Shown: piece after piece, positions 37,894-39,321 of the stretch
How the letters are laid out: each line of letters opens with the position of its first letter
How positions within the stretch are numbered: the stretch's first letter is position 1
Assembly: GCA_014729395.1 (NCBI GenBank)
Contig: WJJZ01000001.1
Coordinates: 67,727-131,726 of the forward strand
Origin: Candidatus Magasanikiibacteriota bacterium
GTDB lineage: Bacteria; Patescibacteriota; Patescibacteriia; Magasanikbacterales; UBA922
Direction of reading: 5' to 3'
DNA length: 64,000 nt
The notes under the pieces: generated by a model
Told to the model about the DNA's origin: nothing
The model's input: only the letters and a program-made list of their open reading frames with translations
The model's database searches: none
Program-made: the position numbers and the translations under genes

Positions 37894-37922
37894 TTGAAAA
37901 CGTAACCTTCTGTATGTATAAT
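37894..37922 (+). promoter_or_regulatory. Sigma70-type promoter TTGAAA-17-TATAAT for the AT-rich two-gene island
   Basis: TTGAAA 37894-37899, TATAAT 37917-37922. Confidence 0.55.
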
Positions 37923-37982
37923 CCGAACACAAACTGATTAAATATGGGTATTAATTATTTTATATAAATTTAAAAAAATAAT

Positions 37983-38624
37983 ATGTCAAAAAATATTCCG
38001 CTACACTCAGATAAAAATTGGCTAAATGGATTTACAAGATATTTGGCTGCCACAGAAATCATCGAGTCTAACAACTGGAAAGAAATGTTCCAAAATTTAG
38101 ATAATTTTTTTACACAGTCTAATTGTCCTGAAAAAATAAAAAGTAATTTATTTAAAGAATACAGAATAATAAATTATATAATAATAATTGAACAAAAGCT
38201 ATGTAATCTTTGCTTGTATTGTTTTCAAAAAAAATATTTTAAAGAAAATGAAAAAGTAAAGGAATATGTGATTAAAAAAATTAAACGCCATCAAAGACTG
38301 GAAGAGGAAGGGGCCAGAAATATATTAGAAATGCAGATACAAGAAGAAGACGAAAGAATTTACACACCGGATAAATTGCTTTACCTATCAGGTTTTTCCC
38401 TCGGAACTTTCATAGATATGATAAAATCACAAACAAAAAATTTTGAAGAAAAAAATGATATTATAAAAAAATTGACAACACTAAACAAAAATAGGGGTTT
38501 ATTTATACATAATTCAACAACCAGCAGAGAGGACACATCAAAAAAAATAAATGAAACATTAATATTAGCTAAAAAAATCTCATCTACACTAGACAAATTT
38601 GAAAATAGTCTATATGAAAACTAA
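37983..38624 (+). CDS. Hypothetical protein with a C-terminal HEPN-like R-x4-H motif
   Basis: NRGLFIHNST (R-x4-H) in an alpha-helical C-terminal region; very AT-rich coding sequence; translationally coupled to the next gene. Confidence 0.4.
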   Translation: MSKNIPLHSDKNWLNGFTRYLAATEIIESNNWKEMFQNLDNFFTQSNCPEKIKSNLFKEYRIINYIIIIEQKLCNLCLYCFQKKYFKENEKVKEYVIKKIKRHQRLEEEGARNILEMQIQEEDERIYTPDKLLYLSGFSLGTFIDMIKSQTKNFEEKNDIIKKLTTLNKNRGLFIHNSTTSREDTSKKINETLILAKKISSTLDKFENSLYEN

Positions 38625-39321
38625 AACTTCTATGTATCTTAAGACAAAACAATTAGGTAATAAGGGTGAAGCCTTTTTTGAAAGTCTAATATCTGACTAT
38701 GCAATTGTACACAAAATAGATGGGTCTAAAGACGTGGGATTGGATTTCATTTGTGAATGGGTCTTTGGTGAATCCCCAACACAACTGCTCTTTGGTGCAC
38801 AGGTCAAATCTACAGCAAGTAAAAATATGAAAATAGAGACTAAAAATAAAATTAGCAGACTCAACGGCTTACATGAATACGGTGGCAACAGTAAGCATGA
38901 TTTTGTAAAAACAAAAACAAGTACCTATTGGTCCGGCTTTGACTTCCCTGTTTTTCTTTTTTTTATAGACTTCACAGAAAAAGAAACCCGGTGTTACTAC
39001 AGAAGGTACACATCACTTCTTCATAAAATTGACGAACCACAGAAAATCCTCCCATTTTATTTAGTCAACGAAGGAAATAATTTTTTGGCATTCGCACCTA
39101 ATAAAGAAGGCGAAGGAGGTTTTTGTCGAGATCTTTATATAGATCATGTAAGATGCCAACATAAAAAAGGACTTCTAACAGGTATTGATCCTAAGAATTT
39201 AGGTTTAACAAAACACTATAAACAAGATGTTTTATATAAAGGTGTATACGAAAAATACAAATTACAAATTAGAAAAACATTTGAAGAATATAAAAAATTT
39301 CATGAGTTGGGTTTATTTTAA
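38614..39321 (+). CDS. DUF4365-like protein (putative restriction-endonuclease-fold domain)
   Basis: GNKGEAFFESL...DGSKDVGLDFICEW...QVKST matches the conserved D/E/K-containing N-terminal core of DUF4365 as recalled from memory; overlaps the upstream stop by 11 nt. Confidence 0.5.
   Translation: MKTKTSMYLKTKQLGNKGEAFFESLISDYAIVHKIDGSKDVGLDFICEWVFGESPTQLLFGAQVKSTASKNMKIETKNKISRLNGLHEYGGNSKHDFVKTKTSTYWSGFDFPVFLFFIDFTEKETRCYYRRYTSLLHKIDEPQKILPFYLVNEGNNFLAFAPNKEGEGGFCRDLYIDHVRCQHKKGLLTGIDPKNLGLTKHYKQDVLYKGVYEKYKLQIRKTFEEYKKFHELGLF

Follow-up and report, generated by a model that had tools for sequence, protein, structure and literature searches.

The window analysed here, a single stretch of 64,000 nucleotides (nt), is part of a contig of Candidatus Magasanikbacteria (Patescibacteria, also called the candidate phyla radiation, CPR), as the source names of both proteins discussed below indicate. 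Two small genes, which we call A and B, lie between its glycolysis genes gpmI and eno. A most likely encodes a divergent HEPN-type protein, and B encodes a predicted DREN-type nuclease. We propose, with a probability of about one half, that the locus is not an obligate two-component system but consists of two nuclease genes of defence type, which are autonomous and were gained either at the same time or successively. This proposal draws on the domain identities and catalytic residues of the two proteins, on the lack of co-occurrence of their families at other loci, and on the mobility of B as a single gene. The elements of the locus are the following.

36267..37883, minus strand: gpmI, identified by an NCBIfam equivalog model.
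37894..37922, plus strand: promoter-like TTGAAA-17-TATAAT upstream of gene A, an 11/12 match to the consensus.
37983..38624, plus strand: gene A, an open reading frame (ORF) of 213 amino acids (aa).
38493..38510, plus strand: codons of R171-G-L-F-I-H176 of A; this R-x4-H motif is predicted to be the active site of a HEPN RNase.
38614..39321, plus strand: gene B, an ORF of 235 aa; the ATG at 38614 matches the deposited 235-aa protein.
38665..39009, plus strand: predicted PD-(D/E)xK (DREN-type) domain of B, residues about 18-132.
38743-38745, plus strand: codon of the predicted catalytic D44 of B.
38800-38808, plus strand: codons of Q63-V-K65 of B.
39031..39318, plus strand: C-terminal domain of B (residues about 140-235, ~95 aa), conserved among its homologues.
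39322..39535, no strand assigned: spacer of 214 nt between B and the convergent eno, GC-rich and strongly structured.
39536..40795, minus strand: eno, identified by an NCBIfam equivalog model.

Both genes are read from the same strand, opposite to that of the flanking gpmI and eno. The ORFs and the NCBIfam matches confirm this arrangement, which an earlier note on this DNA had described. The 11-nt overlap reported there depends on the start codon of B. It is obtained from the ATG at 38614, which places the beginning of B before the stop codon of A. However, an in-frame ATG at 38632 (M7 of B) fits the N-termini of the homologues better and would leave a 7-nt gap to A. The start codon of B is thus uncertain, but A and B are tightly linked with either start. 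They probably form one short, co-transcribed unit within the housekeeping glycolytic cluster.

The N-terminal part of B matches Pfam family PF14280 (DUF4365) over residues 18-132 (E = 1.3e-9, 38.6 bits vs a gathering cut-off of 24.3), and the motifs GNKGE, DVGLDFICEW and QVKST are all found in the protein. This bears out the DUF4365 assignment made in the earlier note. The PADLOC model of the restriction endonuclease (REase) associated with prokaryotic Argonautes (pAgo) also matches B, over the N-terminal ~100 positions only. Homologues of B number 75 and are about 220-230 aa long. A profile of 24 of these proteins gives a weak match to the SPARDA DREN-APAZ structure 9jsb, with QVK aligned on QIK. 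The AlphaFold2 (AF2) model of B has a predicted local distance difference test (pLDDT) score of 83.9. In a Foldseek search of the PDB with this model, the best 14 matches were all SPARDA DREN-APAZ chains, with E down to 4.4e-6 over about 145 columns; RecU, PrfA and type II restriction enzymes came next. The literature describes DUF4365 as a PD-(D/E)xK nuclease; together with the Foldseek matches to SPARDA DREN, this upholds the placement of the family in the PD-(D/E)xK clan, which the earlier note had suggested.

Three residues of B, D44, Q63 and K65, are invariant across the 24 homologues. They correspond to D41/Q60/K62 of the NbaSPARDA DREN domain and, for the last two, to Q62/K64 of TmuRE, all of which are catalytic residues according to the literature. 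The Pfam, PADLOC and profile matches, the structural matches and the invariance of D44, Q63 and K65 all point to B being a bona fide stand-alone DREN-type PD-(D/E)xK nuclease with its predicted catalytic residues intact. The C-terminal domain is also conserved in the family: among the 24 homologues, its invariant residues include G169, F170, R172, D173, L174, D177, G186, P193 and G197-L198. Pfam yields nothing for this domain at E<=10, and the Foldseek matches of B leave it uncovered, with a template modelling (TM) score relative to the query of about 0.4. The resemblance of DREN to I-Ssp6803I described in the literature prompted the idea that B is a homing endonuclease. This identity was rejected, since the flanks of the homologues are unrelated and do not represent one conserved homing site.

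Two described systems are close to B. SPARDA (short pAgo with DREN-APAZ; PDB 9jsb, 9qcc) shares with it the Pfam family, the fold, and the catalytic Asp and QxK. In contrast to SPARDA, B (235 aa) has no APAZ, no Argonaute gene is found nearby, the neighbours being gpmI and eno, and the unmatched ~95-aa C-terminal domain stands where SPARDA has APAZ and Argonaute. Therefore, the guide-directed filament activation of SPARDA cannot apply to B as such. Divona is a single-gene DUF4365 anti-phage system from chromosomal integron cassettes of Vibrio cholerae, and it defends alone. B is likewise stand-alone and combines an N-terminal DUF4365 nuclease domain with a second domain. When the two are compared by description, however, the second domain of Divona is Crr6-like (PF08847), and B has no such match at E<=10.

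The Pfam search that the earlier note had suggested for both proteins thus places B above the gathering score but leaves A without a match. A also has no match in NCBIfam or PADLOC, and no sequence match in the PDB. A word-index search with A returned only A itself, and a search with the A-family profile again returned almost nothing. An exhaustive phmmer search recovered 66 relatives at E<=1e-3, mostly 200-220 aa long and aligned end to end. The view of A as an orphan was therefore rejected, the orphan look being an artefact of the search method. By these alignments, A belongs to a real gene family, small and uncurated, which is found in Patescibacteria.

Across 54 aligned relatives of A, invariance is limited to two columns, R171 and H176. 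Their spacing is always 4, the consensus is RNxxxH, and R171-x4-H176 is the sole R-x4-6-H match of A. The NRGLFIH motif, which had been read as a HEPN R-x4-H motif on first inspection, is indeed present. Because no other residue is invariant in the 54 relatives, R-x4-H is to be regarded as the signature of the A family and not as a chance match. The residue after the R is N in 37 of the 54 members (69%), D in 3 and T in 5. Upstream, E70 is conserved in 85% of the members (E, Q or D in 98%) and falls within a predicted helix at residues 50-85, in which the exact Ex3[KR] form was not seen. The R-x4-H motif and the upstream acidic E70 agree with the published HEPN signature (PMC3710099), which is defined by a conserved Rx4-6H, a polar N, D or H after the R, and an upstream conserved acidic residue; the polar residue after the R is present in most members of the family, whereas the window protein has G.

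When the 54 members were scanned with Pfam, the only families matched repeatedly were HEPN families, namely RiboL-PSP (4 members) and Apea (2 members). Csm6_HEPN, LA2681 and Swt1 were matched once each. The matches to all five HEPN families are sub-threshold, with a best E of 0.0075. A search of PHROGs with the A family gave one insignificant match. The single-sequence AF2 model of A is all-alpha, but its confidence is low (pLDDT 53.5), and a Foldseek search with this low-confidence model gave nothing at E<1. We consider it most likely that A is a divergent protein of the HEPN superfamily, mainly because of the conservation pattern, not the structure, together with the recurring weak HEPN profile matches. 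Very probably, the A family represents a new HEPN family. Compared with known HEPN RNases (Abi-type, RiboL-PSP, Apea, HEPN-MNT), it has the R-x4-H motif, an N after the R in most members, the upstream acidic residue, an all-alpha prediction of low confidence and weak profile matches to several HEPN families. It differs from them in that no curated model reaches threshold, in an N-terminal part of ~130 aa that is specific to the A family, and in the G that follows the R in the A protein of the window.

The co-occurrence of the two families was addressed from both sides. We fetched 78 B loci, which represent 59 clusters at 90% amino-acid identity; in 44 of these clusters, the B homologue is preceded by at least 700 bp. 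A phmmer search with A against every ORF in the 78 loci gave no match. The A-family profile matched only two neighbours of B homologues, one at locus L032 (E = 1e-6) and the other at locus L010 (E = 0.0026). At L010, a 132-aa HEPN-like protein with the motif RNKSIH and a weak HEPN_Cthe2314 match is encoded 60 nt downstream of the B homologue. In more than 40 B-family clusters, no HEPN gene neighbours the B homologue. Several neighbours with an R-x4-6-H motif had been picked by eye (199 aa and 353 aa at L001, 207 aa at L034, 203 aa at L084, 262 aa at L093). They were rejected as HEPN partners, since Pfam found nothing in them and hhalign against the A-family profile scored them no better than controls. 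No common partner emerges from the 104 distinct genes found immediately next to B homologues. Furthermore, when loci whose B genes share about 80% DNA identity are compared, the similarity does not extend beyond the B ORF and the flanks are unrelated. B relocates as a single-gene unit.

From the other side, the neighbourhoods of A-family genes were covered at nine loci besides the window. None of these nine has a DUF4365 gene near the A homologue. Six of them have unrelated neighbours, including a MraW-like methylase, a sigma factor, Memo/LigB and DUF350, and at L093 the gene coupled downstream of the A homologue is unannotated. The lack of phmmer matches to A in the B loci, the presence of only two profile matches, the lack of a common B partner, the similarity that ends at the B ORF borders and the other neighbours of A homologues all argue for autonomy. 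The earlier note had proposed a candidate module and suggested asking whether the pair travels together in other genomes. The loci do not support such joint travel: DUF4365 is found at 0/9 other A loci, and an A-like gene lies upstream in 1/44 B clusters. With one weak downstream case added, co-localisation elsewhere comes close to the complete absence that the same note had named as decisive against the idea. The A-B pair is essentially unique to this genome and not a system. Defence or conflict is the best reading for each gene separately.

Several observations weigh against two autonomous nuclease genes acquired by this genome. At L032, a distant A-like gene of 230 aa (motif RIRFAH; hhalign P = 1.2e-4) lies 116 nt upstream of the B homologue. 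Two A homologues are also followed by other genes of nuclease type:

L087 3001-4543: an A-family gene (P0083) and a PD-T7-5-like 314-aa protein (PADLOC, 6e-8) with a GLDF...VEC nuclease-like motif.
L080 4001-5290: an A-family gene (P0078) and a DUF3800 (RNase H2-like) protein.

Depending on how the genes are called, the two at L087 overlap by 11 nt or are separated by 13 nt, and at L080 the DUF3800 gene follows 24 nt after P0078. The literature describes DUF3800 as the effector, RNase H2-like, of type VII retrons. The arrangements at L032, L087 and L080 hint at a non-random pairing of HEPN and nuclease genes. The tight coupling of A and B in the window, by overlap or by the 7-nt gap, is equally compatible with a functional pair and with simple stacking. 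With respect to the nature of A, no curated HEPN profile reached significance for A or its family in the Pfam scan, and the window protein is alone among the family members in having G after the catalytic R (RGLFIH). With respect to acquisition, the GC content of B (32.0%, z = -0.9) is ordinary among the 50 window ORFs, and the repeats that flank the A-B pair are only short AT-rich chance ones, with no insertion scar.

The first alternative to be weighed is that A and B do form a true two-gene system, in which an A-type HEPN protein is coupled to an interchangeable nuclease effector, one protein sensing or regulating and the other executing. The coupling in the window, the nuclease-type genes behind P0083 and P0078, and the arrangement at L032 would all be explained in this way. 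In addition, the association of HEPN with REases, in fusions or in gene neighbourhoods, is a theme known to recur (Anantharaman et al. 2013, PMC3710099), for which a "multi-pronged" attack on invader RNA and DNA was proposed. The HEPN-like A beside the restriction-endonuclease-fold B resembles this theme. There, however, the linkage is conserved across genomes or the domains are fused, whereas the A-B pairing is essentially unique to the window. A nuclease-type partner is found at only 3/10 A-family loci, window included, the remainder being the six loci with unrelated neighbours and the unannotated case at L093. The more than 40 B clusters without a HEPN neighbour, the relocation of B genes alone, and the control-like scores of the other R-x4-6-H neighbours also speak against such a system, which we regard as doubtful.

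A bolder version of this idea, to which we give still less weight, is that the A family is an unrecognised, CPR-restricted HEPN module and the constant partner of interchangeable nucleases: DUF4365 in the window, the PD-T7-5-like protein at L087 and DUF3800 at L080. Solo DUF4365 nucleases, for their part, would recruit various HEPN proteins, as at L032 and L010. If true, ultra-small bacteria would possess a new class of modular immune systems, each built from one HEPN gene and one nuclease gene.

The gene neighbourhoods of B homologues lead to another alternative. Their commonest neighbours are restriction-modification parts. At L024, a type III-like methyltransferase gene is followed by the B homologue after a 7-nt gap, and L025 likewise has a 7-nt gap. 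The type III-like methyltransferase gene of L060 overlaps the B homologue by 10 nt, and at L030 a type IIG Eco57I/MmeI-like gene overlaps it by 4 nt. Other neighbours include a ResIII helicase, HsdS, the Tsp45I REase and a ThsB-type TIR protein (Thoeris); PIN_8, an AbiEii-like ATPase and an integrase also adjoin B homologues. Elements of these loci are located as follows.

L024 886-4051, L060 1527-4378 and L030 1110-4702: N6_N4_Mtase or Eco57I/MmeI-like genes followed by a solo DUF4365 gene.
L024 4108-4527: ThsB-type TIR protein, directly downstream of the B homologue.
L007 3138-3929: Tsp45I restriction enzyme, directly upstream of the B homologue.
L060 3986-4378 and 7915-8206: B-family gene split by a ~3.5-kb insertion of the IS21 family (IstA-like transposase and IstB).

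The ThsB-TIR and Tsp45I neighbours place the B family in defence islands, and the setting of the B relatives, like the precedent of Divona as a defence system made of one DUF4365 gene, speaks for the defence reading of B. At L024, L060 and L030, the DUF4365 protein may provide the endonuclease activity in a type of restriction-modification system not yet described. B in the window could then be an orphan or leftover restriction endonuclease, either Mrr/type IV-like and modification-dependent or the remnant of a decayed restriction-modification system, with A as an unrelated neighbour. The homologues behind or overlapping methyltransferase or type IIG genes (L024, L025, L060, L030) favour this possibility. 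In contrast to L024, L060 and L030, however, there is no cognate methyltransferase gene next to B in the window. Among B genes that share about 80% DNA identity, some are accompanied by a methyltransferase and others are not, and the C-terminal domain of B has no match to a known DNA-recognition domain in Pfam or Foldseek. We find this origin of B improbable.

A separate observation concerns L043. On its minus strand, at 2342-3790, a 483-aa protein combining a LexA DNA-binding domain, an S24 peptidase and an N6_N4 DNA methyltransferase is encoded divergently beside the DUF4365 gene. It may be a methyltransferase that is cleaved in the SOS response. A phage or plasmid origin of the genes was also considered and rejected. 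In tblastn searches neither A nor B matched INPHARED phages, and B was unmatched in PLSDB plasmids. No relatives were found in IMG/VR, a scan for which the A-family alignment is too divergent.

The earlier note had credited the pair with its own promoter and with a GC content markedly below that of its neighbours. The TTGAAA-17-TATAAT sequence upstream of A is there, but the claim is weakened by its background: matches of this kind in the AT-rich stretch are no commoner than in shuffled sequence (6 found vs 8.7 expected), and the site is therefore suggestive only. As for GC, the statement is right for A, which at 26.0% is the lowest of the 50 window ORFs (z = -2.2), but applies only weakly to B; eno and gpmI have 39.8% each. 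The strand opposite to the neighbours, the promoter-like site and the extreme GC of A are weak hints of acquisition, and horizontal acquisition of the gene pair is plausible. A second TTGAAA-17-TATAAT match, at 37883..37855 on the minus strand, overlaps the mechanically assigned TTG start of gpmI. Therefore, the real start of gpmI is probably the ATG of M19 (MKNNKK..., about 37829; 37827-37829). The A-B unit and gpmI would then have divergent, back-to-back promoters.

Two small, tightly linked or overlapping genes with a promoter-like site of their own could also suggest a classical toxin-antitoxin (addiction) pair, in which either the HEPN RNase or the DUF4365 DNase is the toxin and the other protein the proteic antitoxin. 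Pfam and NCBIfam find neither an MNT nucleotidyltransferase nor a DNA-binding antitoxin domain in A or B. In this respect the locus differs from the type II HEPN-MNT toxin-antitoxin systems, since A adjoins a DUF4365 gene instead. Catalytic-type residues are kept in both proteins, so that neither is antitoxin-like. Moreover, cognate toxin-antitoxin pairs co-occur across genomes, and A and B do not. Such a pair is quite unlikely. Slightly less likely still is a housekeeping role in RNA processing or DNA repair unrelated to conflict: gpmI and eno flank the pair and some A homologues lie among housekeeping genes (MurJ, LepA, PriA), but both families are patchy and sparse, their positions vary, B is mobile, and B relatives occur in restriction-modification or Thoeris contexts, one of them disrupted by IS21.

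For two autonomous nucleases, we infer the following activities and mode of activation. By analogy with other HEPN proteins, A may dimerise and use R171 and H176 as a metal-independent RNase site, and its family-specific N-terminal part of ~130 aa could serve as a sensor or regulatory region. In B, D44, Q63 and K65 would form a Mg2+-binding catalytic triad. The isolated DREN domain of SPARDA is reported to be monomeric and inactive, being switched on by tetramerisation in SPARDA filaments. Since this is so, B may likewise be held inactive and become active upon oligomerisation, with its family-specific C-terminal domain, placed like the Crr6-like domain of Divona, as the switch that controls this step. 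B could be self-contained, because APAZ and Argonaute are missing, an extra conserved domain is present, and Divona defends alone. Once active, it would degrade DNA, leading to restriction of foreign DNA or to abortive infection. Together, A and B could attack the RNA and DNA of an invader, although each can, and usually does, work alone.

The spacer between B and eno folds more strongly than shuffled sequence, with z = -2.9 on the plus strand and -3.7 on the minus strand. Its structured elements are:

about 39372-39452: long hairpin, from folding.
about 39459-39492: second hairpin, from folding.
39504-39527: bidirectional terminator-like hairpin, from a terminator scan.

The spacer has no Rfam match, even at E<=1, and no further copy was found in the window or in the fetched loci. 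It could contain stacked terminators or a small RNA.

Four further features of the window may be recorded. Directly downstream of the canonical gpmI, at 34704-36254 on the minus strand, lies a second, highly divergent gpmI paralogue, 26% identical to it. The paralogue barely passes TIGR01307 (333 bits vs a cut-off of 330.65). Its sequence has ILEAWG in place of ILDGFG, DILAKTNN in place of DMVGHTGD, and GSHPGTE in place of ADHGNAE, at positions that we take to be metal or catalytic ligands of the cofactor-independent phosphoglycerate mutase. This gene may encode a pseudoenzyme or have been neofunctionalised. At 40960-41035 on the plus strand, between eno and a SIMPL/DUF541 gene, ARAGORN predicts a tRNA with the 4-base anticodon "tatc". 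In Rfam, the scores of this element for tRNA-Sec and tRNA-like models stay below threshold (28 bits, E = 8e-4); a pseudo-tRNA, a tRNA of unusual type or the relic of an integration site may be present here. A match to class A RNase P RNA at 14950-15472 (plus strand) spans 523 nt vs 367 positions in the model, which implies sizeable insertions. Finally, a tRNA-Ile with the uncommon anticodon TAT is located at 55318-55391 on the plus strand.

CPR bacteria, the Patescibacteria, have tiny genomes in which few defence systems are recognised. The locus adds an uncurated HEPN-like family with 66 representatives, in which the catalytic-type R and H are the sole invariant residues. It also adds a stand-alone DREN nuclease family with a new conserved C-terminal domain in the position of APAZ and Argonaute. 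B may help to explain how DREN nucleases can be switched on without Argonaute, which would be relevant to SPARDA-type diagnostics and to Divona. Tight linkage in one genome is not proof of a two-component system, and the main value of the locus is as an entry point to two families.

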